From a virus (lineage: Duplodnaviria; Caudoviricetes), in the IMG/VR virus record IMGVR_UViG_3300014204_000111, positions 156,862-220,861 of that record: a stretch of DNA of 64,000 nt. One strand, given 5' to 3'. The notes beneath the pieces were generated by a model, which saw nothing but the letters and a program-made list of their open reading frames with translations, searched no databases and was not told the DNA's origin. Made by a program: the position numbers and the translations under genes. This document shows, piece by piece, positions 22,401 to 61,022 of this stretch. Positions within the stretch are counted from its first letter, which is position 1; each line of letters begins with the position of its first letter.

Positions 22401-25400
22401 TGGTCAATTTTATAATAGATTAGAAGATGAAATACACATTAATACTGAAATTACAGATTTTAAAAATCCTATATCTGCAAATGCAATAGGAACAATAATA
22501 GCGTTTGTCTCTTCAACAGGAAATGATAAGGGTAATTATTATTACAATCTTTATACGCCTAATAATCAAAATTTAGTTTCAGCACAAAAAGTTAGTAGAT
22601 TCGAAATGATTGGAGATGGTAATGCTTACTTTATTTGTGTTGATGAAAAGAATCAAATTTTCGTTCTATTTGACACTAAAACACAAACATTAGTTAATGG
22701 TAGACCTAATATACTTCCTTTATCAGAATTAAATCTTTCTGGTGGAGAAGGAGATTTGTATGCTTACTTTTTATCAACAGCAAATCTTTATAAGTTTAAA
22801 ACTAAAACCACTGATTCAACTAATATTAATATTCCTGCTGCTACTATCTTTGACTTTCCACCTCAAGTTCAAAAGTGGGTTGGCTCATTTAAGAGAAATA
22901 ATTTTTATCTAACTAGTAAGGGAACAAAAGGATATACATATCTTACAGATTTAAATAATTTAACTCAATTTGACGCTCTTCATGCGAGAGATGAAAAAGC
23001 TGATTCAAAAGAAATCAAAAATACACTTACAAATACATTTTGGAGTTGGAATATTGATTCATCTCCTACATCAGAACTTTATAAAATAGGCTCTTCATAT
23101 AAGCAAATTAATACTCCTGATTATGATTGTAATAGTCCTATATTTAATAATACATATAGCTCATATCCAACGTTATATGAACCTTGTGCTATTTTACAGG
23201 ATGATTTCTTCTTATTACCTCACTATAAATATGATACAGATAATAAATCTGTTGTATTATCCTTAGTCATTAATAATCAAAGTATAAAAGAAAATACATC
23301 TGTTAAATCTGGTAATTTACCTAATTTGACATCTAAATATGGAAAAAATAACTCTACTCAAAATATTATAAGAACAGTATTACCTTATCATACAGTAAAA
23401 GCAGTTATAGATGTACCAGAATCAGAAATGACTGTATGGGGTGATGATGGAATGACGCATCCTATTCCAGGGATACATCTTCCATTAGTTTCTAATGTTG
23501 GAGATAAATATTTTGTAAGAGTTGTTAACTACATTGTTCCTCCTGTTGTTCATATTAGACAAATGTATGATAAATACAGAGAAGATTATCTAGGATTAGA
23601 TAATGCAAGTTATATTGTAGACCCAGATATTGCGTCTATTTATCCTTCTGACCCATTAGTATTATATGCTGGATATATCGTAACATGGAATTCTGCTTCT
23701 GGAAATTTTGATGTTGTTATTCCTTCTCCATACCAAGAAGCTATAATTCAAAATACATTCGGAAAATACACTGCTGACACTTCATATTATTATGATAGTA
23801 CTTATTCAACTTGGTTGACAGATAGACCTATTCAAGTTAAGTCAAGTAGTAAACCATTTAGATTGTATGAATATCAATTAGTTGAAGGAGAGGATGTTGG
23901 GGCTTCATTAGCAGCTCAATGGGTATTATGGACAACAACAGTTATTAACGAAGGTTATCCATACGTAACTATATATGAAGAAACTCCTAATATAGCAAAA
24001 TATTGGGCTTATTATGAAAATAAAGAGGTCTTTACAGATAAGAATCTTGATAACAATCCAATTACAGCTCCATTTGAAATAGACAACTTACTTGTGCAAG
24101 GAGTCAATGCTTTACACCGTATGAAAGTTTCTAGTAATGAAATTCAAAGTGTACAAATATGTCTAAATAAAGAGGCTGTAAGAGATTTAAATATAATTGA
24201 TAATAACGAAATTGCTTCAGAAGTTCTAAATATATTTGAAGTCTTAGACGAAGGACTAAGAAATACTTCTGCATATAATACAATTGTTACAGATATTTCT
24301 CCTGAAAATGATATTGACGGGTTAGAACAAGATTATAATGATGTATTTGGTAATTACAAGAAAATGATTGATACATTATTGTGTAATAATCCCATACTTA
24401 CCTTTGATACTACTGACCAAACTTTCTCAGAAGGTTCTTTATCTGTTAATAATAGCGCTGGAACTTTAACTTATAATGCTAATAAGACATTAGAAGGAAT
24501 GGTAGAAGTAATAAAACAAATTACTATTACTGATATAAATGATTTGCCAATTCCTATTCCAGAACTATCAGGACTATATTTAATTAAAAAAATATCTACA
24601 GTCACTCAAAATCATATAGAATTAGATGATGTTGTTGAGTCTATTGATGACATAATTTACATTCCTCAAGAAGCAAGAGAATTAAGAGAATATATTTATC
24701 TTTTATCCACTGGTTCTCCTGGTACTGGTTCTCCTGGCTCTGTATCAACACCTGGATATCTTGTAAAATGGATATATAATCCTAATATAGCAGACTCAGG
24801 AGAATATATACAATATGCTCCATCAGTAGGAGATACTATCTCATTTGATGGCAAATATTATCAATGCGAAAGTGTAACAATAAGTGAGGCTATTTGGACA
24901 TTAATAACTGATGTTACTCAAAATTATGATAATATTTTCTTTAAATATTATGAAGAATCAAGTCCTGATAATTACTGGACATCTGATGAAGTCCCTGCTC
25001 TTTATCCTGGGCTACCAATTAAAGATTTAAGTACTGGTAATATATATGTATATGGTGAATCTAGGTTTAACAATGATAAAAAACTAAGAAATATTGATGG
25101 TAATAAATCTTATAATTCTTATTCTATGTTAAAAATGGCTTTACCAACTGTTCATGAAAATATTAAATATCTTAATACACTACAAAAAGCTCTTAATATT
25201 GATTTATCACCATTTATCAGTATTTCTGCTGTTACCAAAAAGAGCGAGTTAGAACATAAATTTGGTGCAGAATATTTTGAGAATGTATTTCCTCCAAGAG
25301 AAGATGGTAAAACTAATGAGTTAATATCTATTTCAACTAATATTGAAACTAAAATTAATTCTGGAGCAAAAAGATTAGTAGGTACTAAAGATTTTGGATA

Positions 25401-27144
25401 TTATGTTAAAATATCTTACAACTCTGGTACTACATTGGGTAGTGATTCAAGTACAACTTATATAGAAAAATGGCAGTTAGGGCCAACTTGTCCTCCTGTT
25501 ATAACATCTGACTCAAATATTGTAACAGCACTAGGAACAACCGATATCTCTTCATTATTAATTCCTTCAGAATTAGTAGCTCCTAATATTTATTGGGAAA
25601 TTACAAATAGAAGTAATGTAACTAGTACAGTTACTCCTGAAAAATTAGACCTTTGGGCTGATGGATTAGGTACTTCTGAATTTATTGCTGCTAAAATACC
25701 AAGAGCGATATTTAACTATACTAATTATGAGAGTGGATTAATAGCCCTAGCATTAACCGGACAAGTTCTTGGTGATGTTAATACTGGTGTATGGATTTAT
25801 TTAGGAGAAGTATCAGTATCTATGTATACAAATGTAGAGGATAACGTAGCTCCTCTTATACTAGACCAGATACATTTTCTTGAAGAAAAAGTTACTTTAT
25901 TTAGTGCATTTGATTATAACAAGGCTCTTCAAAAATATGATATAGTAACTGATACTGATTGGTTAAATCAAGATGGAGTAAATAGACAAAAATACCATTC
26001 ATTAATAGGTTCTGGAAATCGTATTTCATTTGCTCACGATTGGGAAACTTATAATCTTAATAGTCAAGGAAATCCTCTTCCAGGTTCTATTAATACAACT
26101 GTTTTATTTAATGGACTAACTTCATCTGCCGCTCATGAGGGAGTAGATGTAGATACCTATAGAACATTAGTATCTGAAAAATTGACATCTAATGCGTCTG
26201 TAAGTAGTTATGGTTATATCACTAGTTTAATTAGAGGACAAAAAGGTGTATTTTATGGATTCCAGCCTAATGCAGTATTTGATAATACTGTAGATGCAGG
26301 ACAATTTATCTCAAGAGGTTGGTACTACTTCTGTGTTCCATCGTTATTTGATTATATTAAATTACCAGATGATTTCTTTGTTGAGTATAGTCAGTCTAAT
26401 AATTTAACATCTGTTACAGGAAATATTTCTGAGAAAGAAATTTGGATGGAATCATATTCTGGTACTGGTAAATGGGAAAGAGTTCCAATGCAAGTAATTG
26501 GTAAAAAAGAAACTATTTTAGTTCCTGACCAATTTTATACAAGAACAAATACTCATGATTTAAACTCAAATACATCTGACTTTGTTAAAGAAAGAGTTTA
26601 TACTCAATATTTACCAATTTTTGCTTCTACTATGAAGAGACATGGGCCTCCGTTTACACATGATTATCCTAGAGAATTTGGGTATATTAATTCTAACAGT
26701 GCGTTTTATCAGTTAAATAATATGCCAATTCCTAATGACTTAAGAAGTTGGCGTGATGCTGGGCCTGCATGGAGCACTAATGTTCTAGATTGGACAGTAC
26801 GACCTATTGGTGGATATTGGTTTAGAGTTCTTACAAATATTGGAAGAACATATGATGAAACTGCGACATTAGAGTTAGGAAAAACTACTAGAGATAATGA
26901 TTCGTTTGTTTTAGGTTCTAAATCTCAATATACTGAAGAAGATGGTACATTAGCCGACCCTGTAAAGAGATTAGATATTATTAATTTATTACATAATTGT
27001 CCTCCAATGTTCTTAAATATTGTTCGTAACGAATGTTGGATTGAAGATGCTACTATTTCTAATGGAAAATTAAACTTATTACTTGCAGGAAAAATAGAAG
27101 GCAAGGTACATATGGAGGTTTATACAATCGATGTTAATCAATAA
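13492..27144 (+). CDS. Giant 4550 aa virion structural protein (fibre or appendage-like, multiple beta modules including DUF2793-like repeats)
   Basis: 13.6 kb uninterrupted ORF, N/D/T/S/Y/I-rich. N-terminal F..G..L....LQ..Q.NF...HQHDG motif; DUF2793-like segment near 21721-21906; located among structural genes. Confidence 0.8.
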   Translation: MPLNKVNFAQGANLSSECLQNIQTNFDRYLSSHQHDGVNSPFIDASEVHLEGQDAGNPLNRTLYDHVRDYAIHGFGNRYAVTSPYSDTLSESDYVEIDIIEDCKQWTFNGTYWETIVQLAKPIESDYTVQIQPVYSNHYVDFFTKLNPDTNFANLEGVVPLNNTLLNLHIIPTNLTSSSFGVRLYAIGKGTRHQLVSYDESLFANKNKIYFAERLTLPITGNSELNTFKIPYAGGFNYLPKKGKCSFPVDIFLAVNAIVTPNSTKLIVGDSVKPLPFNIADNNTYAFRDISEDIAGFQAPTDAANFGFITEEDAKSLEILNLSSFSQAQLANIVISGDNIEYKTRTFHYIDQQGNTVDTIPDEILPGMMYYVIIVDTVHHLNGDPDSTSTIMKPLSEILIISSDKNIIEYQASIGTLTPRTVDSYGNIAETNVFLSGDYQVLDNEYILLNNVTYNGRQADDLYYQPPKNTEVSIASQDFSDAHSDNASRIFYDNHNLLTDIFPGLTPETSVALYYKGFNSVDSQALYPDMKVDLRNTSTYNKTVYFSNKEYLIDSKFIPIRIRPKSIVVNAKSVLTTEYNAIFVRPKTIILRPEDVFYPLTGAQNTFNFPQGVAIGLNKTLAFKALNLDNFSDNFNSYHFYAYLKCPTNDGKYVTGYAEFFNNNLLDYINDADAESIDYQTIQGNAESRIFTGEFSTYVPVSGKLVSELIDNLRNYYIETDKEPSEAIIPGITKVFINKSDIQPLNYLNRFYTGSDLSAKFLAHSSTTPLDSHIGIVKNVEKTNSETWRVNLYSPVHQNSEATYLQKIFDGLDFIPQDVVNINGEPVFLSKTPTEPLLYKRITAEVVSTNKIILDKNDIINTNRYQDNLFSFDVYSEDDSKVVTNTKYIANNNDVEFTHYLYVGSELPFNTIDCILDDPINASLGATVTYQFLDQESEWIDLTLLNNTTTQNLDFYGLGDFSEFPNSVAIFERPNIATINERYSSQPYTTSRWTKSSLPDFKSTSKYWVRIKVDVPTHNSLPSSDTRKGYFPVIRSVSVYSTSPANIRINNWSCTATQDVNQKYIVTLTKVSNASTDISYLRKGDFVSWRQIIDSVTHYFQGTLISAAKDGSNNITLIINSPKWAGEESTVSMVTSCRNPLSYIRNIRVPIDKDIHVNISRRTNQQNPIPPLGTSGFYDSIAYGALKQQFFLISEDHETPLTLNEDFDNIRNCYDEYDDNETPDKGDIRTFYFKGDFVLTEVCPRIISDTVQYGIISDHSIGIHDKLWINLLQYNSSNLNYYVAKLSTNDQYYLVIRSGGTLPVEEDLNDFNVGAFSNKFAYLWDDNYPILSRDGIVEDISEDSPGGTYSLTDIEFSQRVSKFYKGDALSFGARNLIGIVFDTDDIYTSYNPDRPSFTNVNGIDDISNTFELVLPISVTSFGDNVFVNNGLTNTGDTFVYSDARTILTKEATLDSFPELPYEIDLLTLVESDSLYAKINTVKNTEDGLEIILGDNPPNTDEILLVSEGYYSNISSTLTIEDDDINRIKSRITQLRTENKGLGDATNNGDFKYEKLVQSHKAYDFGRAWAGLKDKQARVAVKFNPTLDDNVSYNIKNFSFLPGYDGNSINGINSIGNGIYCFVTPIRNIKHYNPALDGNYFGVNIKLSDSFASLSNLTYAHTHGAVDTYNVESIVDSIGKVPSDSLYYLLSDNPISGYLPYAGNIVTRTVNGVTYTRAEANATLLDISTGRRYIRVANKWRDLLTNTEPVYELVSKFNPSNHDESLVWHLAKIDNEYFIYVGNYSIIDPSTIPFSVGTILQSFDAWPMTTSITYDNPYFIVEASFDSQKKPQDTTYTHQIWKKVKEGDNTTVIPWGPTNNAVFGGSYLNYATSILPVKTGQTVSVVCLNLGDDGTKEYIKAKSISLGTVAEAWYNPVNINRIAKIHYTAGVVDSIVFNDTIPQYMDICRVINSKDIYIFYGVSPNGRWTKYDLSIFENINDKNNTLNKYAYISTPNGVYKQEEYYIGNTRYLYWKKYNSSTHIANKFVAISNSEEQGSKIIYENPYITGDFDTLFKGKSIYIRTQPITNNYNTKNSNYVMPDYDDTLYETFLGKVSEVITKTRKQSITEQITGEKSKETENDSTQKDFSISGSTIITDIYLRFEDEAGSLNKDLVDLLFKTPVPIYEDDLSSYAESQMINWSRVNALAINKSTYPATIVQNFNLNDYVHTDTLSNTVFFPARATDWGTTTRFTDSYGASYNDADSKPLFAPTLHREGNWASQTKIGDRITYKPKEVSHHAYKKLVLRQPKDDLYVLLDYMSDPHRDYMTGQEHTPLIFSGTNSLLFNRDISTYTPVTDGNNNTLGISQPGEIINLVTDKYLEKFGPYSYKTYKTKFSRLANLANSGNANLLTVVSKNGNNDDLVELSEAASYIEADGLDTYISMAFLTSFATNSINTINKEKGVNTTVPSYGVKLDGQYEILTGSDEAEPKIEFSKFVTSLSLKNWSIGYRVIVAESDGSSCTLPVMVKYKEDVFDHMKYYDPNSTATIDVRDYIIFYDGVRYNLITPDYTYNNEDIACLTSTLGKVYYKYTLDGWTRLSTFDDSTTIRRKITVNDNNTIESEYLKNLYPGIAILSENAFNYNTIYEDTTGDMILGYVKRIRYAYSEDDVIDQSRIIVEQVDNIHSLAYPPEIFGVGDTFIIRDRVFTDTIVDPIELFLGDTPGEWIDDKYTSILSSIIGNPLQLVDTPNAVEGFSEADYYNLIPAGTKFLNSPVILTGPWIGHENEISCWTGSEWLFDAPEIGRILAITSRDTYVRWDGVQWSDIEVPAWWWDASAPEGVIAIATTGCMSKKSGDYIDRINNFEQMWKYITPEVGDILIAKDKQKYEFKQGSPLDWHNINNRTYQIELDNGRTLDAGTYRTAFVYPPLMTKVPEDNTRHSFYTADIDGKVIYTNNLLFDYENRVMIKSYNDRYFGRTSVSIHKQLHKNINGQFYNRLEDEIHINTEITDFKNPISANAIGTIIAFVSSTGNDKGNYYYNLYTPNNQNLVSAQKVSRFEMIGDGNAYFICVDEKNQIFVLFDTKTQTLVNGRPNILPLSELNLSGGEGDLYAYFLSTANLYKFKTKTTDSTNINIPAATIFDFPPQVQKWVGSFKRNNFYLTSKGTKGYTYLTDLNNLTQFDALHARDEKADSKEIKNTLTNTFWSWNIDSSPTSELYKIGSSYKQINTPDYDCNSPIFNNTYSSYPTLYEPCAILQDDFFLLPHYKYDTDNKSVVLSLVINNQSIKENTSVKSGNLPNLTSKYGKNNSTQNIIRTVLPYHTVKAVIDVPESEMTVWGDDGMTHPIPGIHLPLVSNVGDKYFVRVVNYIVPPVVHIRQMYDKYREDYLGLDNASYIVDPDIASIYPSDPLVLYAGYIVTWNSASGNFDVVIPSPYQEAIIQNTFGKYTADTSYYYDSTYSTWLTDRPIQVKSSSKPFRLYEYQLVEGEDVGASLAAQWVLWTTTVINEGYPYVTIYEETPNIAKYWAYYENKEVFTDKNLDNNPITAPFEIDNLLVQGVNALHRMKVSSNEIQSVQICLNKEAVRDLNIIDNNEIASEVLNIFEVLDEGLRNTSAYNTIVTDISPENDIDGLEQDYNDVFGNYKKMIDTLLCNNPILTFDTTDQTFSEGSLSVNNSAGTLTYNANKTLEGMVEVIKQITITDINDLPIPIPELSGLYLIKKISTVTQNHIELDDVVESIDDIIYIPQEARELREYIYLLSTGSPGTGSPGSVSTPGYLVKWIYNPNIADSGEYIQYAPSVGDTISFDGKYYQCESVTISEAIWTLITDVTQNYDNIFFKYYEESSPDNYWTSDEVPALYPGLPIKDLSTGNIYVYGESRFNNDKKLRNIDGNKSYNSYSMLKMALPTVHENIKYLNTLQKALNIDLSPFISISAVTKKSELEHKFGAEYFENVFPPREDGKTNELISISTNIETKINSGAKRLVGTKDFGYYVKISYNSGTTLGSDSSTTYIEKWQLGPTCPPVITSDSNIVTALGTTDISSLLIPSELVAPNIYWEITNRSNVTSTVTPEKLDLWADGLGTSEFIAAKIPRAIFNYTNYESGLIALALTGQVLGDVNTGVWIYLGEVSVSMYTNVEDNVAPLILDQIHFLEEKVTLFSAFDYNKALQKYDIVTDTDWLNQDGVNRQKYHSLIGSGNRISFAHDWETYNLNSQGNPLPGSINTTVLFNGLTSSAAHEGVDVDTYRTLVSEKLTSNASVSSYGYITSLIRGQKGVFYGFQPNAVFDNTVDAGQFISRGWYYFCVPSLFDYIKLPDDFFVEYSQSNNLTSVTGNISEKEIWMESYSGTGKWERVPMQVIGKKETILVPDQFYTRTNTHDLNSNTSDFVKERVYTQYLPIFASTMKRHGPPFTHDYPREFGYINSNSAFYQLNNMPIPNDLRSWRDAGPAWSTNVLDWTVRPIGGYWFRVLTNIGRTYDETATLELGKTTRDNDSFVLGSKSQYTEEDGTLADPVKRLDIINLLHNCPPMFLNIVRNECWIEDATISNGKLNLLLAGKIEGKVHMEVYTIDVNQ

Positions 27145-30100
27145 TGAATTTATTCCTGTAATACAAAAAACATCACAAACATATAGAACTATTCGAACCA
27201 AAAATTATGGTAATTTTTTGGGATTTGAAACTAATACGTTAATTTGGGATAAAAATATAGACCAAGGTATACGTTATTTTAATTATTCACAACAACCGTG
27301 GTGGAGAGGTACTTATTACAATAATTTAGATGGAAAATTTCCATTTCTTCCTATGGGTGGTAATAATTTTATTGATGACCTAGGTATTTATACTATTAAT
27401 GAAGGAACAAATTTTGCTCAGAGAGAAATGCTTTATCAAAAGGGAGACGAAGATAAAGGTCTAGATAAAAGCATTTGTCTAAAATGGCAAAAATCTTTAT
27501 CATCAGAAAAAATTACTCAGGTTCAAGATATAATTCCTACTGATATTCCATTGGTAGGTGGAGTATTGCCCTATGGTACTCAGAATGATTTATATAAAGA
27601 TACGTATATTGATATAAGTAATAATACTTCTCCTATTAAACCTATTACTTATTCTAAAACATCAACCTCAGAAGCAATATCTTATCAAGATATGTATCGT
27701 ATTGAGAATAGTTCTTTGTTACCTAACAATGCTTTTGTAGATAATAAAAATATAAATATAGAAAAAAGATTTTCTGATGAATATGGAACACCAGCAATAC
27801 TTCGCTTATTACCTGAATATATAACTCCTGTAGTTACTGATGAACCTCAACATCCTGCACAATTTTATAGCTCATTATACGGAAGATTAGATGGGGACAC
27901 TGTTATATTCTTATTACATAAAAATGACATAGTTTATGTTGGTAATAATAATACTTTGGGAATTGAATTAGCTGATGCTGCGAGAACTTTAAAACAAGGA
28001 ACACAAGAAGTTCCATCTCAAGGAACAGCATATGCCGCAGAACAAGGTGCTTGGTTAACTTTAGGCTCTGGTAATAGTGGTGGAGCAAAATATCATGCTA
28101 ATGATATAGTTGTTATTACTAATGATATTTCTGGGCCTTTGGCTGGAACATTTAAGAGTGATACATATTCTACGCCAGCTATTGTTAGACAAACATTAGC
28201 TACAGATAGATTTTCTTCTCCATATAATGCAACTGTATATCTAAAGGGAGCAGATTATTTATATTTTAATTACGATGCAATAAGAGAGCAAAAATATTCA
28301 AATCCTATTGCTCAAAGTAAGGCATTAAGTATTGGTTCAGTTTATTATATTCAACCAGTTGGTTTAAAAAATAAAAATGTTAGTACTGGAGTTTACACTG
28401 ATTTAAATAATGATTTGTATCATATAGGATTATTTCCAGGTATGCAATTATACTCCTATGCAACAAAAGACAAAGTTTATCCTCAAACTATTCTAGACTA
28501 TAAAGATGCAACTCGATATAATATCGTTACTAGTTGTAGCGATATTAATGCTGATTTTAACACTTCAGAATATCACTATCTAAATATAATCTTAGACTCT
28601 ATAGAAAAAAATAATGCACAATTATTTTCAGGCTCTTTACTGGGATGTTCTACATTAGACGATACTATACAGTATATTTATACAGATAAGGCGAATACAC
28701 TAGACACTATTCTCTCTTTAGACTTATTAGGAAAAAGTATTTTTAATACAGATACTGACCTATCTAGTAATAATAGAGCTATTATAATAGGATACGGATT
28801 AGGTTCTGCATGTGGTCATGTTATTACAGATTTTAATAATGATGCTATAAATTTTAATGATAATATAGATAAAATTAATTACAAAAAATATATTTTAATT
28901 ATCAAGTGGTTAATTGATGATGACGGAGTATATTATCTAAACTCTAGTTCTGATATGTCATCAGTTGCTTTTTCTCCATCAAGTTTGACTTTTAAAACTT
29001 ATGATGCTATAGATTTTACTGGAGAAGTTAAAGATGAAAATTCTCTTGCTACTATAAAGAAAGACTTTGTAGTATTAGAAGCTTCTCATCCAGTATACGA
29101 AACTGATTCTAATGGAGTATTATATGGTGGATTACAAGCTATTTATATTAAAGAATTAAATAGTCTTCCAAGCGAAGAAATTCCTTATACTATACCTGAT
29201 GTTAAAACAGCAAACGCTATAGAATCTGGTATCCGACCAGGAGTGATATTAAATGTAGGACAAGATATACAATGTTCAGAGTCAGCTTCTGCTGATATTA
29301 TCAATTTAGGAATATCACCCTCTGTCACTTGTTCTACAAGAAGAGTTCATTCACCTGTAGAATTAATTACTGCTATAGTAGATTATGATGACTTAGGAAC
29401 CTTATCAGAATTAACCTGGAAAGATACTAATAGACCAGAATATGATGACCCTTATGGTGCGGAATCTATGATTCCTACTGTACTTGCTGGTTATACACAT
29501 AATTATCAATCTTTAGCAAAAGGAGATAGTTGGAGACTATATAGCGAAAATATATTTATGGATAATTATATTGAAAATTATTTAGATAGTTTTCCTGATG
29601 ATAATTATTATGATGATATATTTGCCATAGATATTTATGAATGGCTTGTAGACAATAATAAGCTTATTCCTTCTACACAAAGAGCAGTCTCTAGTATTAG
29701 AGATTTTATAGAAAAAATTTCTGATGGAGAAATATCATTTTTAATTGAAGGTAGAAATGAACTACCATATATGACACTTACTGATGACATTTTATGTTAT
29801 CAGGTTAATGGTACTTATATTTGGCCTGCTAGTAATGTAGGTTATTGGTCAAATGGCGGATTTAATACTACTACATCAGTTGTTAATCCTTGGTATTTTG
29901 GAACAAATGACCCATCTCTTATAAATGAAGAGAAGGGAGGAATACACGTATTTGATTATGAACCCGTAAGTAGTTGGAGATTAGTGAATTTAAATGATGA
30001 TATATCTTCCGGTGGTCTTTATCAAGGTTATTATAATTCGACTTATATGAATAGCTTTACTGGTCAATGGTATGATTCAAATCATAGTCTAAAAAATACG

Positions 30101-33100
30101 GTAGGCTCTTCATTTAGTCCATATGTTGTTGAGCATACTATATTATCATCTCGTTTGCATGAAGTGCCTTCTATTGCTGATTGTCCTGAAAATCTACAGT
30201 TTGTTGTCAAATACGATAATACTGAAGAATATATGTCTATGTGTGGCTTAAAAGCACTATTAAGAGAAAAGATGGGCATTGCTGTAAGAGGTGATATAGA
30301 GGTATGGGAAGAAGCTATTATTAATCCTGGCTTATTATCATATAAAACTACAGCGAAAGTTATTAATAATCTTTCTGGTGGTTTATACGAATTTGGTCAA
30401 TATATGGATAACGGAGGTACATCTCCTAAATTTTGGAAATATCCTCTAGAAAATAGTAGAACAATTACTGCTTATGCTTATATGAATAGAAGCGCTAACT
30501 ACAGCGGAGAAGTGGAAAATCCTGGGTGGGAAAATTTACTAGAAAATAGTGGCGTAGGAGATTCATGGGAAACAGTTGATATTACTTTAGTTGGAGTAGG
30601 TACTGTTGAAGGACTTAAGGTAACTAATGAAATACCATGTAATATATCGGAAATAGATAAATATAAAGCATTATATGATACTAAAACTTTACCTCAAATA
30701 CTAGAAGTAGTAAATTATTATAACAAACATGATTTATCACCAAATGATGTAGAAATAACTCCTTCAACTGTTATTGGTGGATGGGAAGACTGGATAAGGT
30801 CTGCTGATGGAAGTTTTGAATCAGGATTTTATCAAACAACATATTTAGAAGAGCATTTAGAATCAGCTCTAGAAGTGGCACGTAGATGTGCGTTACTAGG
30901 AGTTTCTTACGATTTTTATCTTGATGAGTTAGATGTTCCAGAGCATATCTATATTACACCTATGAATCCAAATAATATTTGGAAAGTACACGGATTAAAT
31001 TACGATGTTGCTAACAATATTACTACTGGTCATAGTAATTTTATTTATCCGTATAATTATTTATATGGCTATTATAAAGATGATAGCTCTGAAACCAATG
31101 AAAGTAGTATTATGAATTTATTAAGACGAAAGGGTATTAAAATTGAAGATGAATATTTTACCTCTGGAACTCAGCAGATAGATTGTATCGTCACACCAAT
31201 TCCTTATACCTTTAGTTTTACATATAATGCTTCTGCTGTAGCTAATACTGTAGCTCGTAAGTGGTGGACTGGAGAAACAGAAATTTATAGAGCAGTTTAT
31301 GCTAAATACGCCTTACCCGAAGTTTATTCGCCATTTTTAGTCCTAGACATAGTAAGAGGAGATTATACATCATTAACAGAATACGGAACTGATGTAGACC
31401 CCGACTTTTATAATAATATTGGTAACGACGTTATATTAATTGTGAAGCCTTTTGATAATAGTTCATCTAGTGAAGTATTAAACTCTTTATCTCATTTATT
31501 AGCTAAAACTAATATTGACCCAACTAAACCTTATGATTATTTATTTGACAAATTTTATAACAAAGATGGACAGAGAAGATATCAAACATTAAAGTGGAAT
31601 CTTACTGCTTCAGTTGGATATGATGGCCCTTCACTTAAACAAAATATTTATAGAGGTTATTCTAGTAATCAATGTCGTACTGTTGGTCTAACAGAAAATG
31701 TATATACAGATAATAATAAAAAAATAGTAGATAAAGAAAGCGAAACAGAAGAAGCTACTATTTATCATCAAAAACCATTAATTATAGAAAATATAGATGG
31801 AGTTTATACTGACCGCTTATTTAATCAAGAAATTGCAGCTACTGAAAGTTATAAATTTGTATCTATTGAACCTAAATTAGGAACTATTATTTATAATTTA
31901 AATAGGTCAGGAAATATATATTCAGAGGGTTGGTATTACTATAATGGTTCTGAATGGATATTAGCTTCTTATATAAATGAACCTAAGAGTTTAGGATTTA
32001 TTGTAGACGTTAATTATCGATATACTTTAGATGGAGTTCCTGAAAATGGAGGAATTTTTCTCACTAAGACTCTATTTAAGGGAACTGAAAGTGGTGTTTT
32101 TGCACCTAATAAAGTAACAATAATTAAACCAACTACCTTTGCAATACCAAAATTACGAAGTTCAAATACTGATGCTATATTAGAGCAAGACGATTCTGAC
32201 TATAAATATGCCAAGCTCTTAATCCCTCCTACAGAATGGAAGAATAATCCTTCATATAATTTAGGTGATGGCGTTGTTGTTGCTTATAAAGAGAATGGAG
32301 AATTTGGAGTATATTCTACCGTAGAACAAACTAGTTATAACTTTACTATTTTAAATGAAATGCTTAAGTACTTCTTTGGAGGTACAAGTACATATTTTGC
32401 TGAGAACGGAGAATATACAGTTTATACTGGACTACATCAACCAGAGTGGCCTTTACCTAGAGATATGGAATTAATTCAAAAGAGTTCGTATGAATTAGAG
32501 TTAATTGATGATATGGTTCTTCTTGTCTTTATTGGTACTGCTTGTATTGAGATTATGTGTGGTAAAGGATTTGATATTAATAATCCTAAGAAAATTTATC
32601 ACAGATATTTAACTGAAGGTTGGAAAACTCCTTGGGGCAGTAATATTGCTAAAAAATATTATACTGATATTATTTTAGGAGAAGATTCTAACAACTTTAT
32701 TCAAGGTGACGAGAATAGAAATGCTGTACTATCTGCTCTTGCACCTGTAGTAATAGAAAATAGTGGATTTGATGTTGGTAATATTAGTAATGATATTTTG
32801 GAAAATCTTAAATTTTATTATTATGCAAAACCAACTAATATTGAAAATTTATATTCATTTAAAACAGCATATTCATTTGATGATGCTTCTGGGTCAAAGT
32901 ATAAAAGTGGAGATTCTTCATCTTTATACGTCTCTAATTTAGCCTCTCTCATCAATGACCAAGATAATAAGAGTCCTATTTTATATTCTGTTTATCTTGA
33001 ATTTCCTGTTGTAGATGATTTTAACTATATTAACTTTAAGTTAGATTTTAGTCATTTAATGCATTTAAAAAATGAGAATCAAAGTATTGCAGATTTTATA

Positions 33101-33823
33101 AATAATAAATTTACTGGTAGTGAATTTAATGTATCAGATAAAGGAAGATTAACTCTGAGAGATGGAGGGGCTAGATTATTTGATTCTATTGGTCTTATTG
33201 ATTTGCGTTACTATGATAGTAAAAATAATAAATGGATGAGTACTAATATAGTTGAAGAGTCAACAAGTCAAGGTTATTATAAACAAATTATAGCAGGTTA
33301 TAAATCTCAATCATTAGACCCGTTTGGTATAGTAAGAACTGCTCTTACCTTAGATGGTATGACATCTACTACAACTTTTGAAAAAAATTATAATCCATTT
33401 TTTGATTATGCTAATTCTACATTAACAATTGAAACTGGAGATAACGGAGAATTAGATTATTCTAATGTGACTATTAAATTAGCTGTCAAAGAAGGATTTA
33501 AAGAATTAGTAAAAAATGAATATATTATCGCTGATGAAAATACTCCTCTTATCTACGCCGTCTCCTTAACTGATAATTATTTTGAAGTTAAAGATAAAGA
33601 GATAAGGACAGACAAAATTTATAATAAAAAACTTATTTGGTTTGCTTCTCCGCCAATTGTTCAACATACTGGAGGAACAGATGATGTTATTCATATGTCT
33701 CAATTCAAAATTGATGATTCTATTTTTGGCCCATCTGACTTAACTGTTGCTCATGGAGCAGCATTACATGGACGCTATCCTCTGGATATACTAAGAGTTT
33801 TAAAAAGTTTATATCTAGAGTGA
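27131..33823 (+). CDS. Large 2230 aa virion structural protein (appendage-like)
   Basis: GGAGG upstream; 14-nt overlap with the previous gene; similar composition and modules (EPKLGTIIYN..GWYYYNGSEW). Confidence 0.78.
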   Translation: MLINNEFIPVIQKTSQTYRTIRTKNYGNFLGFETNTLIWDKNIDQGIRYFNYSQQPWWRGTYYNNLDGKFPFLPMGGNNFIDDLGIYTINEGTNFAQREMLYQKGDEDKGLDKSICLKWQKSLSSEKITQVQDIIPTDIPLVGGVLPYGTQNDLYKDTYIDISNNTSPIKPITYSKTSTSEAISYQDMYRIENSSLLPNNAFVDNKNINIEKRFSDEYGTPAILRLLPEYITPVVTDEPQHPAQFYSSLYGRLDGDTVIFLLHKNDIVYVGNNNTLGIELADAARTLKQGTQEVPSQGTAYAAEQGAWLTLGSGNSGGAKYHANDIVVITNDISGPLAGTFKSDTYSTPAIVRQTLATDRFSSPYNATVYLKGADYLYFNYDAIREQKYSNPIAQSKALSIGSVYYIQPVGLKNKNVSTGVYTDLNNDLYHIGLFPGMQLYSYATKDKVYPQTILDYKDATRYNIVTSCSDINADFNTSEYHYLNIILDSIEKNNAQLFSGSLLGCSTLDDTIQYIYTDKANTLDTILSLDLLGKSIFNTDTDLSSNNRAIIIGYGLGSACGHVITDFNNDAINFNDNIDKINYKKYILIIKWLIDDDGVYYLNSSSDMSSVAFSPSSLTFKTYDAIDFTGEVKDENSLATIKKDFVVLEASHPVYETDSNGVLYGGLQAIYIKELNSLPSEEIPYTIPDVKTANAIESGIRPGVILNVGQDIQCSESASADIINLGISPSVTCSTRRVHSPVELITAIVDYDDLGTLSELTWKDTNRPEYDDPYGAESMIPTVLAGYTHNYQSLAKGDSWRLYSENIFMDNYIENYLDSFPDDNYYDDIFAIDIYEWLVDNNKLIPSTQRAVSSIRDFIEKISDGEISFLIEGRNELPYMTLTDDILCYQVNGTYIWPASNVGYWSNGGFNTTTSVVNPWYFGTNDPSLINEEKGGIHVFDYEPVSSWRLVNLNDDISSGGLYQGYYNSTYMNSFTGQWYDSNHSLKNTVGSSFSPYVVEHTILSSRLHEVPSIADCPENLQFVVKYDNTEEYMSMCGLKALLREKMGIAVRGDIEVWEEAIINPGLLSYKTTAKVINNLSGGLYEFGQYMDNGGTSPKFWKYPLENSRTITAYAYMNRSANYSGEVENPGWENLLENSGVGDSWETVDITLVGVGTVEGLKVTNEIPCNISEIDKYKALYDTKTLPQILEVVNYYNKHDLSPNDVEITPSTVIGGWEDWIRSADGSFESGFYQTTYLEEHLESALEVARRCALLGVSYDFYLDELDVPEHIYITPMNPNNIWKVHGLNYDVANNITTGHSNFIYPYNYLYGYYKDDSSETNESSIMNLLRRKGIKIEDEYFTSGTQQIDCIVTPIPYTFSFTYNASAVANTVARKWWTGETEIYRAVYAKYALPEVYSPFLVLDIVRGDYTSLTEYGTDVDPDFYNNIGNDVILIVKPFDNSSSSEVLNSLSHLLAKTNIDPTKPYDYLFDKFYNKDGQRRYQTLKWNLTASVGYDGPSLKQNIYRGYSSNQCRTVGLTENVYTDNNKKIVDKESETEEATIYHQKPLIIENIDGVYTDRLFNQEIAATESYKFVSIEPKLGTIIYNLNRSGNIYSEGWYYYNGSEWILASYINEPKSLGFIVDVNYRYTLDGVPENGGIFLTKTLFKGTESGVFAPNKVTIIKPTTFAIPKLRSSNTDAILEQDDSDYKYAKLLIPPTEWKNNPSYNLGDGVVVAYKENGEFGVYSTVEQTSYNFTILNEMLKYFFGGTSTYFAENGEYTVYTGLHQPEWPLPRDMELIQKSSYELELIDDMVLLVFIGTACIEIMCGKGFDINNPKKIYHRYLTEGWKTPWGSNIAKKYYTDIILGEDSNNFIQGDENRNAVLSALAPVVIENSGFDVGNISNDILENLKFYYYAKPTNIENLYSFKTAYSFDDASGSKYKSGDSSSLYVSNLASLINDQDNKSPILYSVYLEFPVVDDFNYINFKLDFSHLMHLKNENQSIADFINNKFTGSEFNVSDKGRLTLRDGGARLFDSIGLIDLRYYDSKNNKWMSTNIVEESTSQGYYKQIIAGYKSQSLDPFGIVRTALTLDGMTSTTTFEKNYNPFFDYANSTLTIETGDNGELDYSNVTIKLAVKEGFKELVKNEYIIADENTPLIYAVSLTDNYFEVKDKEIRTDKIYNKKLIWFASPPIVQHTGGTDDVIHMSQFKIDDSIFGPSDLTVAHGAALHGRYPLDILRVLKSLYLE

Positions 33824-35277: not shown

Positions 35278-36692
35278 TGTCACTTAAAACTCCCATAGAT
35301 TTCAAAGATAATATTGTAGCAACAGAAATTAATTGCAATGACCCGATAATACATGAGGCAATATACCAATCGGGTCAATGCCACCCCTCTTTTGACCAAA
35401 GAGGTGTGTCAAATATTACAGACCCAAATGTAATAAAAGAACCAGACCCTATTGTATATGATGATATCACTATTACAGAAACAATTCATAAATGTGATTG
35501 TGATAGATTTATTTTAGATACTCCAAACTTAGAGACATGTTTAGATTTAAATGGCAACATTATACTTAAATGGAACGGTATACCTTGTGCTACAGCATAT
35601 GAGATTTATAGAGATGGAGCTACAACTCCTACAGTAATTCTTCCAGGCTCTTCACTTCATTATGTTGATATTGATATAACAGATATTAATCCTCATACAT
35701 ATACAATAAGAGCTTTACGATATACTACAGAATCTATTGGTTTAACAGAATGCACAGAAGAAGCCTTAACAGAGACTAATCCTTGTCTTATTGATGATAA
35801 TTATCTAATGGGAAGTGTTACTGGCCCTTACTCTAGTTTATTATCAGGATTAGTTACCACAGACCCAAATGGTACAGCAATTGCTTTTGCTAGAATTGAT
35901 GATACATCTATTAATGGAAAAATAAATTTTTATTTCTCAGATAGTACAGAGATTACTACTCATACTACTAATCCTGATAATATTTGGACTTCTCATACTA
36001 TTACAACAAATATTGGTTCTGGTATTGCTCAAGATTATCCTAATGCTGAAGAGACAAATATATCTTATACTAGACATAGTGAAAGACCTTTGCTAGCTTA
36101 TGTTGATAATATAAATAAATCTATTCATTTATCTATGGCTATATCGAAAGATTATCAAACATCTTCTAGTGATTGGGTTAATATGCAAGCATTTGGATTT
36201 GGGAATATAGGAGATGATAACTATATTACTGAATTAGTAATTAAGTGTTGGGATTATGAAGTAATGGATATGTTATACATTATTAATGATACCGCAGTAT
36301 ATTATGCTTATTCTACTGATTTAGGAACAACATGGAATGCTTATCAAGTTACAACGGCAGAACACGGAACTTGCTCTATTTGGTTATTTTATCATGAAAC
36401 TACTTTTGGAAAACCTAGTTTTATTTTATCTACTACTGATGTAACAACTACTTATCAAAAATGGCAGAGTACTACACAATTTATTTCTCCATTTTATGAA
36501 CTTCCAACTTATGAAACTAAATGGGAAAAAGATGGTGTATTGAAAAGTGATACTACTACATTCGAAGCATTAAAAATATATAACTTAGAGGATTGTGGTG
36601 TTCAAGGATATGGTTCTTGTTACTCTTATGAAATTGTTGCAAGAATAGTTGGAGAATCACTTTACTATGAAATGATAGCGATTGACGCATAA
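35277..36692 (+). CDS. Putative appendage or receptor-binding protein with an Fn3-like domain and Asp-box/beta-propeller region
   Basis: IILKWNG..ATAYEIYRDG...YVD......HTYTIRA (Fn3-like); YSTDLGTTW (BNR/Asp-box). Confidence 0.72.
   Translation: MSLKTPIDFKDNIVATEINCNDPIIHEAIYQSGQCHPSFDQRGVSNITDPNVIKEPDPIVYDDITITETIHKCDCDRFILDTPNLETCLDLNGNIILKWNGIPCATAYEIYRDGATTPTVILPGSSLHYVDIDITDINPHTYTIRALRYTTESIGLTECTEEALTETNPCLIDDNYLMGSVTGPYSSLLSGLVTTDPNGTAIAFARIDDTSINGKINFYFSDSTEITTHTTNPDNIWTSHTITTNIGSGIAQDYPNAEETNISYTRHSERPLLAYVDNINKSIHLSMAISKDYQTSSSDWVNMQAFGFGNIGDDNYITELVIKCWDYEVMDMLYIINDTAVYYAYSTDLGTTWNAYQVTTAEHGTCSIWLFYHETTFGKPSFILSTTDVTTTYQKWQSTTQFISPFYELPTYETKWEKDGVLKSDTTTFEALKIYNLEDCGVQGYGSCYSYEIVARIVGESLYYEMIAIDA
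35346..35438 (+). repeat. 93-bp exact direct repeat, copy 1
   Basis: Identical to 36734..36826; encodes IIHEAIYQSGQCHPSFDQRGVSNITDPNVIK. Confidence 0.95.
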
Positions 36693-37321
36693 TGACAGAT
36701 ATAATCATTCCCGAAATTAAATGTGAAGATATAATAATACATGAGGCAATATACCAATCGGGTCAATGCCACCCCTCTTTTGACCAAAGAGGTGTGTCAA
36801 ATATTACAGACCCAAATGTAATAAAACCAGAAGAACCGACTCATAAAAATCCAACGAGAACATATATGATAACAGAGATAATAGATTGCTGTAAATTTAT
36901 AGCTAGTAACTTTGCTCCTGAAGTAATAAATCAAAGAGAAGAACCAGGAAGTAGTTCATCTAGTAGTTCATCTAGTAGTTCTTCTAGTTCATCTAGTTCT
37001 TCGAGTAGTTCATCTAGCTCTTCTAGTAGCTCATCATCTAGTTCCTCTAGTAGCTCTGAAAGTACTCCTGGGAGTCCAGTATCACAATATTTAATATCAG
37101 TGACCAGAACACCTGTTGATGCTTCGGAAGCAGAAATAATACAAAGTGATGATTGTACATATTTAATTGCTAGATTAAATTCTGACAATATTCCTGATGA
37201 AATTTGTTCTGGTGGAACTCTTCTTAATGAAATTGCTCATTTAGAAACAAGAACAGAAATAACTACATCTTATATTTTTGATAATGATGGTCAAAGAGTA
37301 TCATTTACGGCGGTATTATAA
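36692..37321 (+). CDS. Putative structural protein with a duplicated N-terminus and a poly-serine tract
   Basis: Shares 31 identical codons with 35277; 36-Ser run; TAATG-coupled at both ends. Confidence 0.75.
   Translation: MTDIIIPEIKCEDIIIHEAIYQSGQCHPSFDQRGVSNITDPNVIKPEEPTHKNPTRTYMITEIIDCCKFIASNFAPEVINQREEPGSSSSSSSSSSSSSSSSSSSSSSSSSSSSSSSSSSSSESTPGSPVSQYLISVTRTPVDASEAEIIQSDDCTYLIARLNSDNIPDEICSGGTLLNEIAHLETRTEITTSYIFDNDGQRVSFTAVL
36734..36826 (+). repeat. 93-bp exact direct repeat, copy 2
   Basis: Identical to 35346..35438. Confidence 0.95.
36950..37057 (+). repeat. Poly-serine coding tract (36 codons)
   Basis: 108 nt made of mixed AGT/TCA/TCT/TCG/AGC/TCC codons. Confidence 0.95.
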
Positions 37322-43330: not shown

Positions 43331-43687
43331 ATGCAAGAAGTGGAGTTTGAGGGAAGTAAGTATACTATTAAAACAGAGCCGATGACCATTGGAGACCTAA
43401 TGGACATGACGGCATATATGGATTATCTAAAATGGTACTCGCAACGACTATTGCCTGAGCAGGTTCCTTGTTCAGAAGATAGCAAAGAATTTTACGGACA
43501 AGTGGCAAGAGCCTTAGTTATTGTAAAAGCAGGATTAGCTCCTCCGGGGCATAGTAATATGAATCCTATGACTTTACTACAATTAAGAGGTAAGTTGCCT
43601 GAGTTTGTAAAATTTATTTGTCATCAATATGATATTTCCAAAGAACCTGCTTTGGCAACTACAGAAGAAGAAGCTAAAAAAAAATAG
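43331..43687 (+). CDS. Tail assembly chaperone (gpG-like)
   Basis: After the tube gene; ends EEEAKKK on an A9 slippery run. Confidence 0.8.
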   Translation: MQEVEFEGSKYTIKTEPMTIGDLMDMTAYMDYLKWYSQRLLPEQVPCSEDSKEFYGQVARALVIVKAGLAPPGHSNMNPMTLLQLRGKLPEFVKFICHQYDISKEPALATTEEEAKKK

Positions 43688-43908
43688 CAGAAAATCCTCA
43701 TCTTAAGGCTATTCTTGATTTGGGTTTTTATATGGGTGTGAATCCATTCGCACCAACTTTGCGTGAAACTCGTCAAGATTATTTCTTGCTCTTAACTGTT
43801 CATAGAGAGTACATGATTAATCAACGTAAAATTCAAGCTCAAATTGAGAAGGATAAAGCAGACGCAATTAATCAATTTCTTCCATCAAGAGGAGCGTTTA
43901 GAAGATAA
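43678..43908 (+). CDS. Tail assembly chaperone -1 frameshift extension (gpT-like)
   Basis: A AAA AAA heptamer at 43678-43684; the -1 frame is open as KKIAENPHLKAILDLGFYMGVNPF... to TAA at 43908. Confidence 0.8.
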   Translation, partial: KKIAENPHLKAILDLGFYMGVNPFAPTLRETRQDYFLLLTVHREYMINQRKIQAQIEKDKADAINQFLPSRGAFRR

Positions 43909-45524
43909 TGCCTAATGAAGTACAAATTATTATACAATCTAATGCAGAATCTACCATAGCAAGATTATGGGAGGCTGTTTCTGACGTTTCTTCTCGTACT
44001 CAAAGTAATATTCCTTCTATTTCTCCTATTTCAGATAATTATATCGCAAAAGAAATTGCTCCTCCAGAACCAAGTACATATAGAGACCCAATAAATGCTA
44101 TTGCCCCTCCGCAAATAACAACAACTCCTATTAATATTACTAATCAAATAAATACACCTCAATTACCAAGTATTGAGCCAATTATTCCGCAACTTACTCA
44201 TACTCAAGAATGGGTGAATAAAGATATTGGATATGATAAACAAGAGTTTATTCCTCAAATTAGACCTATCGAATATCAGCCACAAGATTATGAAAAACAT
44301 ATAAGAGTGCCTGAAATTCCGTTTACTCCTATTCAAATTTCTCCAACAGAAATAAATCAATTTAATTTGCCAGAAATTAGTGCCAATCATCCACAAATTG
44401 AAATTCCTCGTTTAGAGCTTCCAATTCTTCAAAAAATAGAAGCAAGAGAACAACAGATAAGAATGCCTGAATTCTCATTTATAACTCCTACATATAAAGA
44501 ATTTGAAAAAAACACAATTTCTCCGATTAATATTGATACATCTATAGAGCCAAAAGAGTCTCCTCAGTTTGAATATTCAGTTCCAGAATTTAATATTTCG
44601 GTTCCTAACGAATATAAAGAGTATGAAGAGAAGTTTCAACCATCTCAGTATATACAACCTGAACAACAATGGCAACCTATCCCAATTTCATCTCCCTCTT
44701 TTCAAGAGGTGACAATTCCAGAAATACAAAAACCAGAGATTCTTCAAGGCTCTTCATCTTTTCAATATGTTACGCCTGAATTTATTCCAATGAAAGATTC
44801 TCAATATGTTGGATTTATACCTTCTGATAAAGTAGATTTTTCTTATGTTAATGATATCAAAGACACTCAAATTCAACCTATTCAGAGTGGATTTGAACCA
44901 CAATTTCAAATTCAGCCTATCCCAACAGAATATCAGTCTCAATTCTCTTTACCAGATATTTCTATAGAACATCCTCAGTTTTCAACTAGAGACATAGGTA
45001 TTCCAGAATTATCGATGTTTTCTCCTAGAGAAATTAATTCTGTAGAAATAACCCCAACTGATAGACAAATACCAATTATAAATGAAGTTCAACAAAATTT
45101 TTCATTTCCATCTATTGAAGTAGGATTAAGAGAACCTGAACTTAAGGATATTAATCTACCAGCTATTCAACAATTAATTGCTCCCGCGATTGCTCTTTTG
45201 TCTCCTGATAGACAAGAGGTACAACCTATTATGTTAGAGACAAAAGAATTTAATTATCAACAAAAAGAATTCACTACTCCTGATTTTCCTTTCTCTTTAC
45301 CTGAAATAAAAATGTTTGAAAAAGAAGAAGAATCTATAAAACCAATAGAGTATAAACAAGAGCCACCATTCGAATATGAACAACCTAGAATTGAGGTAAA
45401 ATTAATGGATGATTGGAAATTTGGAGGAAGAAGAGAAACTATAGCTAATGTGTCAAAAACATTTCAACAGAAAGAAGGTTCTCAAGTTGAGATAGGATGG
45501 ATATTTAATAGTAGGTATAATTAA
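43908..45524 (+). CDS. Protein in the tape measure position; atypical Pro/Gln/Glu/Ile-rich sequence
   Basis: Lies between the G/GT chaperone and the baseplate hub. TMP-like start EVQIIIQSNAESTIARL, but about 65 Pro in 538 aa by hand count. Confidence 0.55.
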   Translation: MPNEVQIIIQSNAESTIARLWEAVSDVSSRTQSNIPSISPISDNYIAKEIAPPEPSTYRDPINAIAPPQITTTPINITNQINTPQLPSIEPIIPQLTHTQEWVNKDIGYDKQEFIPQIRPIEYQPQDYEKHIRVPEIPFTPIQISPTEINQFNLPEISANHPQIEIPRLELPILQKIEAREQQIRMPEFSFITPTYKEFEKNTISPINIDTSIEPKESPQFEYSVPEFNISVPNEYKEYEEKFQPSQYIQPEQQWQPIPISSPSFQEVTIPEIQKPEILQGSSSFQYVTPEFIPMKDSQYVGFIPSDKVDFSYVNDIKDTQIQPIQSGFEPQFQIQPIPTEYQSQFSLPDISIEHPQFSTRDIGIPELSMFSPREINSVEITPTDRQIPIINEVQQNFSFPSIEVGLREPELKDINLPAIQQLIAPAIALLSPDRQEVQPIMLETKEFNYQQKEFTTPDFPFSLPEIKMFEKEEESIKPIEYKQEPPFEYEQPRIEVKLMDDWKFGGRRETIANVSKTFQQKEGSQVEIGWIFNSRYN

Positions 45525-60498: not shown

Positions 60499-61022
60499 GA
60501 TTATTACAACATGGTGGGCCAGACCCAGGCGAAGAAAATGAAGAGCATGGAGGAATTAGACCTAATATTAAAATGCCATTATCTCAACAATTAAGTCCAG
60601 AAGAAGAACAAGCTGTTTATAATCATCATACAAATATGATGAAAGTGCTAAGTGCAAATAATAAAAATGACCCTAATTCTTTGAATTATTTTGAAGGTAA
60701 ATTAAATGAATTGGCTAATCATCATGGTTCTGAGGTTGTTGGAGATGCATGGCAAGAAGGAAATTTACTTCCATTAATGAAGAGACACCCTACTTATATT
60801 CCCAATCTTTTAGCAGAAGTTAAGAGACAAAAAAGTCCTAGTCAACAACAATTGCCATTTGGTCATGGAGGAATTAAATTAGATAAAAATAATGGTTATT
60901 TATCTAACGGAAATTATAATCCACCTACACCAAAAGAAGAAAAGAAAGAAGAATTTAAACCACAACCAGAATTACCTGCTGATGTCAATATAAACAACTG
61001 GGATAAACCCAGAACTAAATAA
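60462..61022 (+). CDS. -1 frameshift extension of 59140..60498 (includes the supplied ORF 60573..61022)
   Basis: Reads PFSKGIGRNEEVGLLQHGGPDPGEENEEHGGIRPNIKMPLSQQL...; same motifs as the zero-frame part. ATG 60573 lacks a well-spaced SD. Confidence 0.68.
   Translation, partial: PFSKGIGRNEEVGLLQHGGPDPGEENEEHGGIRPNIKMPLSQQLSPEEEQAVYNHHTNMMKVLSANNKNDPNSLNYFEGKLNELANHHGSEVVGDAWQEGNLLPLMKRHPTYIPNLLAEVKRQKSPSQQQLPFGHGGIKLDKNNGYLSNGNYNPPTPKEEKKEEFKPQPELPADVNINNWDKPRTK

Follow-up and report, generated by a model that had tools for sequence, protein, structure and literature searches.

A candidate tape measure protein with a proline-rich, non-helical core in an uncultured jumbo myophage

Gene order in the tail module

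The DNA analysed here, a window of 64,000 nucleotides, corresponds to bases 156862-220861 of a 220,861-bp record. It contains a tail module in which the gene for a 538-residue proline-rich protein, P0001, lies between a frameshifted pair of tail assembly chaperone genes and the gene for a hub-like baseplate protein, P0004 (Table 1). The whole record has a GC content of 31.7%, a 124-bp terminal overlap and direct terminal repeats, and is scored as 100% complete by CheckV. Because this complete record encodes a portal, a tail sheath and a Baseplate J protein, we take it to be the complete genome of an uncultured jumbo myophage. In tblastn searches against cultured phages, the portal shared only 23–25% identity with its counterparts, mostly those of Bacillus, Enterococcus, Staphylococcus and Lactobacillus phages, and the sheath, the hub-like protein and the Baseplate J protein had no match. 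The portal itself is unusually long (950 aa, 11.7% Gln; genome 153345-156197); PHROG profiles match it to residue 584 at most and the Pfam domain to about residue 395, with a long C-terminal extension beyond.

Table 1 Features of the tail module around P0001. Coordinates are those of the window.
Feature	Coordinates	Strand	Basis and remarks
Tail sheath, 757 aa	40593..42866	+	phrog_279, E 6.8e-19; weak Pfam Phage_sheath_1C match; 46%-identical homologue in L003
Putative tail tube, 147 aa	42878..43321	+	Position and size only
Tail assembly chaperone G, 118 aa, ending ...EEEAKKK*	43331..43687	+	Same-position homologues in L003 and L004
-1 slippery heptamer A AAA AAA, final two Lys codons of G	43678..43684	+	GCT AAA AAA AAA TAG
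T extension of the G/GT fusion, 74 codons + stop, -1 frame	43684..43908	+	Stop overlaps P0001 start (TAATG)
P0001, candidate non-helical tape measure protein, 538 aa	43908..45524	+	Composition, motifs, slot; ends overlap flanking genes
P0004, hub-like baseplate protein, 607 aa	45524..47347	+	ESM Atlas clusters; follows the TMP-slot gene in relatives
Presumed baseplate/spike component, 743 aa	47349..49580	+	Position only; no family match; 0% helix-competent
Baseplate J / wedge subunit, 442 aa	51749..53077	+	Pfam Baseplate_J, E 1.1e-12; phrog_6, E 7.9e-38

The -1 reading frame opens exactly at the slippery site, and the same arrangement was found in two other genomes, L003 (SRR22279389) and L004 (JGI 3300037067). 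The slippery site of L004 is identical to that of the window, and in both a stop codon directly follows the heptamer on its 3' side, unlike in L003, where the heptamer reads A AAA AAG and G extends in the zero frame by another ten codons (L003:3887-3931). The G proteins of the three genomes share 36–54% identity, and the T peptide encoded in the -1 frame is kept in all three, with its PF and R-DY-L motifs. Because both the G part and the -1-frame T part are conserved, this is a genuine G/GT programmed frameshift.

The other assignments in the module vary in their basis. The putative tube protein and its 49%-identical relative both weakly match phrog_985, annotated as a virion structural protein (E 0.007), and no PDB sequence matches the putative tube protein. 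Searches of Pfam, PHROG and PDB sequences likewise returned no match to P0004, whose nearest ESM Atlas clusters include GpP-like_1st, Phage_GPD and VgrG (feature score 0.96; TM 0.45–0.64). Beyond P0004, the tail module also contains a 135-aa ORF and the Baseplate J gene.

In myophages the gene for the tape measure protein (TMP) comes after the frameshifted chaperone pair (PMC8570332, PMC3556154), and P0001 lies directly 3' of the G/GT pair and 5' of the baseplate hub genes. The module reads sheath, putative tube, G, T (-1 frame), P0001, hub-like protein, Baseplate J, and this is the gene order of Mu, which runs sheath, tube, chaperone, TMP, N, hub, V and wedge proteins. That P0001 occupies the TMP slot, as the original prediction proposed, is well supported. 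Neither P0001 nor P0004 gave a Pfam match (E up to 0.1) to the N-terminal domain of Mu gp43 or N-type DNA circularisation proteins. A complex prediction of the G chaperone with full-length P0001, run without controls, scored 0.00, which speaks neither for binding nor against it.

Composition and motifs of P0001

The original prediction described a 538-aa ORF with about 12% Pro and with Gly and Ala scarce in its core, and the composition of P0001 is indeed 12.1% Pro (65 residues), 1.9% Gly and 2.6% Ala, together with 13.8% Ile, 9.9% Gln and 11.2% Glu. It ranks highest in Pro and lowest in Gly among the window's ORFs that reach 100 aa (n = 44); other Pro-rich ORFs lie at window positions 1593-2189 (11.6% Pro) and 60573-61022 (10.1% Pro, 12.8% Asn). 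The high content of Ile and Phe is unusual for a truly disordered chain. No membrane segment was detected in P0001, as had been predicted, the 19-aa Kyte-Doolittle mean peaking at 1.28. Both the start and the stop of the gene overlap neighbouring genes (TAATG), and its GC3 and proline codon use are like those of the adjacent genes, which argues that it is native to this genome.

The recurring proline-centred units noted earlier are all present, with FNLPEI at residue 152, IRMPEF at 184, FSLPDI at 346, FSFPSI at 398 and FSLPEI at 462. The pattern that was used to describe them occurs five times compared to 0.12 expected (0/2000 shuffles), and a strict motif, phi-x-phi-P-[DE]-phi, occurs eight times compared to 0.21 expected (0/5000 shuffles). 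The longer internal repeat that accompanied them also stands: a 14-aa repeat at residues 150-163 and 344-357 scored 53, above the maximum of 46 obtained in 200 shuffles. Further internal repeats scored at chance level relative to shuffles. The strict motifs are spaced irregularly, 13–158 aa apart, and show no sign of a per-ring repeat; with this spacing, and with one repeat alone exceeding the shuffles, a regular tandem ruler unit was ruled out.

A full-length relative of P0001 conserves the termini and the length

In phmmer-type searches against sets of 5.8 billion and 1.84 billion proteins, P0001 matched itself alone, and nothing usable as a homologue was found among PDB sequences, INPHARED phages or the ESM Atlas. 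P0001 had no Pfam match at E up to 0.1, no PHROG match and no match to any TMP family, including the curated families PhageMin_Tail, TMP_2, TMP_3 and Tape_meas_lam_C and the PHROG TMP families. Relatives were instead traced through the neighbouring genes. Homologues of P0004 at 41% and 35% identity lie 3' of the TMP-slot gene in L004 and L005, and the L004 gene between G/T and the hub homologue, which derives from a metagenome, encodes a 519-aa protein, P0007, the only full-length relative of P0001. A third phage with a member of the family contributed just a 37-aa N-terminal and a 22-aa C-terminal fragment. Queries with the sheath, a sheath alignment, a hub alignment and a P0001/P0007 alignment found no additional relative in IMG/VR, JGI metagenome or GTDB genome contigs. 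P0001 is thus a member of a small orphan family.

BLASTP aligned only the N-terminal 31 residues of P0001 and P0007 (MPNE[VI]xI[IV]IQSNA..., E 4e-4). Global alignment of the two proteins was collinear and scored well above shuffled sequences (z 9.5), with z values of 4.3 (global) and 6.3 (local) for the core and 4.3 for the C-terminus, where the motifs YEQxR and WKF[GN]G[RT]R are common to both. P0007 is also low in Gly and Ala and rich in Ile (16%), and it contains five phi-x-phi-P-[DE]-phi motifs compared to 0.18 expected; 81% of its prolines are preceded by a hydrophobic residue and 46% are followed by an acidic one. Proline richness itself did not hold up as a conserved trait, since P0007 has only 5.0% Pro.

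Although the cores of the two proteins have diverged almost beyond recognition, their lengths of 538 and 519 aa have been kept, and the sheath and hub proteins that flank the slot retain 41–50% identity between relatives. Length that is kept while sequence is lost would be expected of a spacer or ruler, as judged here from two protein sequences.

The core of P0001 cannot form a continuous helix

We compared P0001 and P0007 with four reference TMPs taken from public records, lambda H, P2 T, Mu gp42 and T4 gp29 (Table 2). Residues were counted as helix-competent if they fell in a 28-aa stretch of high helix propensity that lacked Pro and contained no more than one Gly. The long α-helical or coiled-coil core of the reference TMPs, with its little Pro and abundant Ala, was not found in P0001, which differs from all four in Pro and Ala content and in the 100-degree periodicity of the hydrophobic moment. 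The prolines of P0001 span residues 36-493, and because none of the Pro-free gaps in that stretch exceeds 22 aa, the ~460-aa core cannot be a continuous α-helix. This argument from proline spacing stands on its own, independently of any structural model. Together with the lack of helix-competent residues, it bears out the non-helical core of the original prediction, and we regard the non-helical character of P0001 as well supported.

Table 2 Composition and periodicity of P0001 and P0007 compared with reference TMPs. z values are relative to shuffled sequences.
Property	Reference TMPs	P0001	P0007
Pro	1.5-4.2%	12.1%	5.0%
Ala	10.5-17%	2.6%	1.5%
Longest Pro-free run	116-167 aa	45 aa	56 aa
Helix-competent residues	24-58% (lambda H, P2 T, Mu gp42)	0%	6.5%
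Hydrophobic moment at 100 degrees, z	3.0-5.9	-0.4	-0.4
Hydrophobic moment at 160 degrees, z	-1.6 to -0.2	2.8	1.9
Hydrophobic autocorrelation at lag 1, z		-5.7	-5.0
Net charge	-16 to +34	-38	-53

Structure prediction was in agreement with this, at very low confidence. AlphaFold2 placed helices in P0001 only at residues 13-30, 174-183, 235-241 and 417-430 (mean pLDDT 36) and modelled P0007 mostly as short strands and coil (mean pLDDT 34), and the ESM Atlas model of P0001 had a pLDDT of 0.37. Such single-sequence, very low-confidence models only fail to show the long helices of a canonical TMP, and they cannot fix the conformation of the chain. The earlier statement that only the termini of P0001 look TMP-like was partly right, in that residues 13-30 are predicted to be helical and both termini are conserved in the relative.

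What this core would measure depends on its conformation. From 538 aa we calculated a length of ~81 nm for a helix and of ~167–178 nm for a fully extended or polyproline-II chain. It is possible, and we suggest this tentatively, that a non-helical, essentially unfolded acidic chain measures the contractile tail at ~0.3 nm per residue, to give ~170–180 nm from its 538 aa rather than ~80 nm, and that the chaperone or the wall of the tube docks onto the phi-x-phi-P-[DE]-phi motifs.

A hydrophobic content of 32–36%, as we found in P0001 and P0007, is however high for a disordered chain, so that folding into β structure on assembly is a live alternative. P0001 would still be the tape measure, with its core forming a compact β-rich trimer or hexamer, or packing strand by strand against the wall, and a rise equal to or below that of a helix would give a tail of ~80 nm or less. 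Adjacent hydrophobic residues are strongly avoided in both proteins, a weak 160-degree signal is present (z 2.8 and 1.9), AlphaFold2 draws many short strands in P0007, and that relative has just 5% Pro. The autocorrelation is also negative at lag 4 in both proteins, and their strong alternating hydrophobic pattern would fit β structure or folding on assembly as well as it would fit a free extended chain. On the other hand, the strongly negative net charges of P0001 and P0007 and frequent prolines would oppose compact packing, the models, at pLDDT 34–36, have no defined fold, and no repeat is regular enough for a β-solenoid. On this evidence we consider folding of the core on assembly a doubtful explanation.

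Search for another ruler in the genome

We also looked for a conventional TMP elsewhere. The whole genome had no match to Pfam families PF10145, PF20155, PF06791 and PF09718, and the same searches were positive in most of 14 control genomes. Helix capability was scored across the genome for every ORF that reached 150 aa, 139 in total, and the most helix-capable were those for PolIII alpha, the portal, an SbcC/Rad50-like protein, a glycosyltransferase and a sigma factor. The original prediction had seen no other TMP candidate in the window and proposed searching the rest of the genome for a canonical helical one; its observation holds for the window and extends to the complete 220.9-kb genome, in which no other helix-capable ruler candidate was found.

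Several long proteins were considered individually as rulers. A 1975-aa protein was ruled out as a polyprotein with GNAT and VanY domains, the 950-aa protein as the portal, and a 576-aa ORF as an SbcC/Rad50-like SMC ATPase. This ATPase (genome 38090-39820) is 52% helix-capable, the highest value among ORFs of more than 500 aa, and is the sole apparent coiled-coil candidate outside the tail module. A Gly/Ala-rich protein of 941 aa was rejected, having weak matches only and falling outside the 15 most helix-capable ORFs. It is encoded far from the tail module (genome 134839-137664), contains 10.4% Gly, 9.4% Ala and 1.4% Glu, and weakly matches a PHROG major tail protein (E 0.0026) and Pfam E1_FCCH.

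The head genes are separated from the tail module by two giant ORFs, 4550 and 2230 aa long (window 13492-27144 and 27131-33823, with a 14-nt overlap). They match no family and are 3.6% and 7.4% helix-competent, and were rejected as rulers. Both are rich in Asn, Ser and Ile, with no PHROG match and a sub-threshold match to DUF2793 only, and may encode fibres or decoration proteins. Just upstream of the sheath region is a 209-aa ORF with 23.9% Ser and no family match (window 36692-37321). Within the tail module, the 607- and 743-aa neighbours of P0001 were rejected because both are 0% helix-competent and the 607-aa protein is hub-like.

P0001 could instead be an ejected or hub-associated tail protein, such as a plug or pilot, that follows G/GT by chance, with tail length set by another, unrecognised protein or mechanism. 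This would accommodate the absence of any TMP family match and a composition unlike that of any reference TMP, and no function has been assigned to the giant ORFs that precede the sheath. However, G/GT chaperones are known to serve the TMP whose gene directly follows theirs (PMC3556154, PMC8570332), the complete genome offers no other helix-capable or lumen-type candidate, the giant ORFs have little helix-competent sequence and, being located 5' of the sheath, are not in the chaperone-to-hub slot, and the length of P0001 is conserved where its sequence is not. We therefore judge a plug or pilot improbable. That the ORF is no functional gene and its composition an artefact of AT-rich DNA, as its orphan status among billions of proteins might suggest, is effectively refuted, since chance does not yield a 538-codon open frame in 31.6% GC DNA, its ends are coupled to its neighbours, its GC3 and proline codon use match theirs, and a collinear homologue occupies the same slot in another phage.

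A proposed model for P0001 as a tape measure

A role for P0001 as TMP or ruler is likely. We think it probable that P0001 is the tape measure, a tube-lumen protein, of this uncultured jumbo myophage and that its core is unable to form the usual continuous helix or coiled coil. The protein would consist of a helical N-terminus of ~30 aa, a strongly acidic core of ~460 aa in which Ile, Pro, Gln and Glu are abundant but Gly and Ala scarce, and a conserved C-terminal segment containing WKFxGxR. We hypothesize that G and the frameshift product GT bind the chain and keep it soluble, and that its C-terminal end binds in the hub, the product of the gene that follows. Polymerisation of tube and sheath around the chain would then continue as far as the N-terminal end, so that chain length would set tail length, and the chain would finally be expelled ahead of the DNA.

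P0001 shares several features with known rulers. Like the myophage TMPs Mu gp42, P2 gpT and T4 gp29, and like lambda gpH, it is encoded after the tube and a -1 frameshift chaperone pair and before the hub, and as in these proteins the termini are the conserved parts; T4 gp29, at 590 aa, is also similar in size. The net charge of P0001 lies outside the range of the reference TMPs (Table 2). The TMP of phiTE has been seen as six long helices (PMC11972413). T4 gp29 was proposed to enter the baseplate unfolded and then to extend with the tube (PMC3004832), so that a non-globular ruler has been envisaged before.

In the literature that we searched, with incomplete coverage, we found no report of proline-rich, disordered or non-helical phage TMPs, nor of a protein in the TMP slot that is unable to be helical at all. 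Unfolded, secreted rulers are known from type III systems. FliK, which sets hook length, and YscP/SctP, which sets needle length, are largely non-globular, proline-containing chains in which the number of residues sets the length of a tubular polymer; their export runs through the tube as it grows, and they have a switch domain at the C-terminus. These proteins may serve as a precedent, by analogy, for a ruler that is not a coiled coil, although their machines are unrelated to that of P0001, in which neither FliK nor any other Pfam domain was matched at E up to 0.1.

TMPs are described as long α-helical proteins, and the length of the gene is converted into a predicted tail length by a rule of ~0.15 nm per residue (PMC13585406, PMC3556154); a TMP is annotated in 25.8% of myovirus-type genomes (PMC13585406). 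If our reading of P0001 is correct, a family in the TMP slot that is unable to be helical would break the 0.15 nm per residue rule, and the assembly logic of chaperone, ruler and tube would need no coiled coil. It would also help to explain why annotation misses the TMP in most metagenomic myophages, and it would provide a natural test of how the conformation of a chain converts the number of its residues into length.
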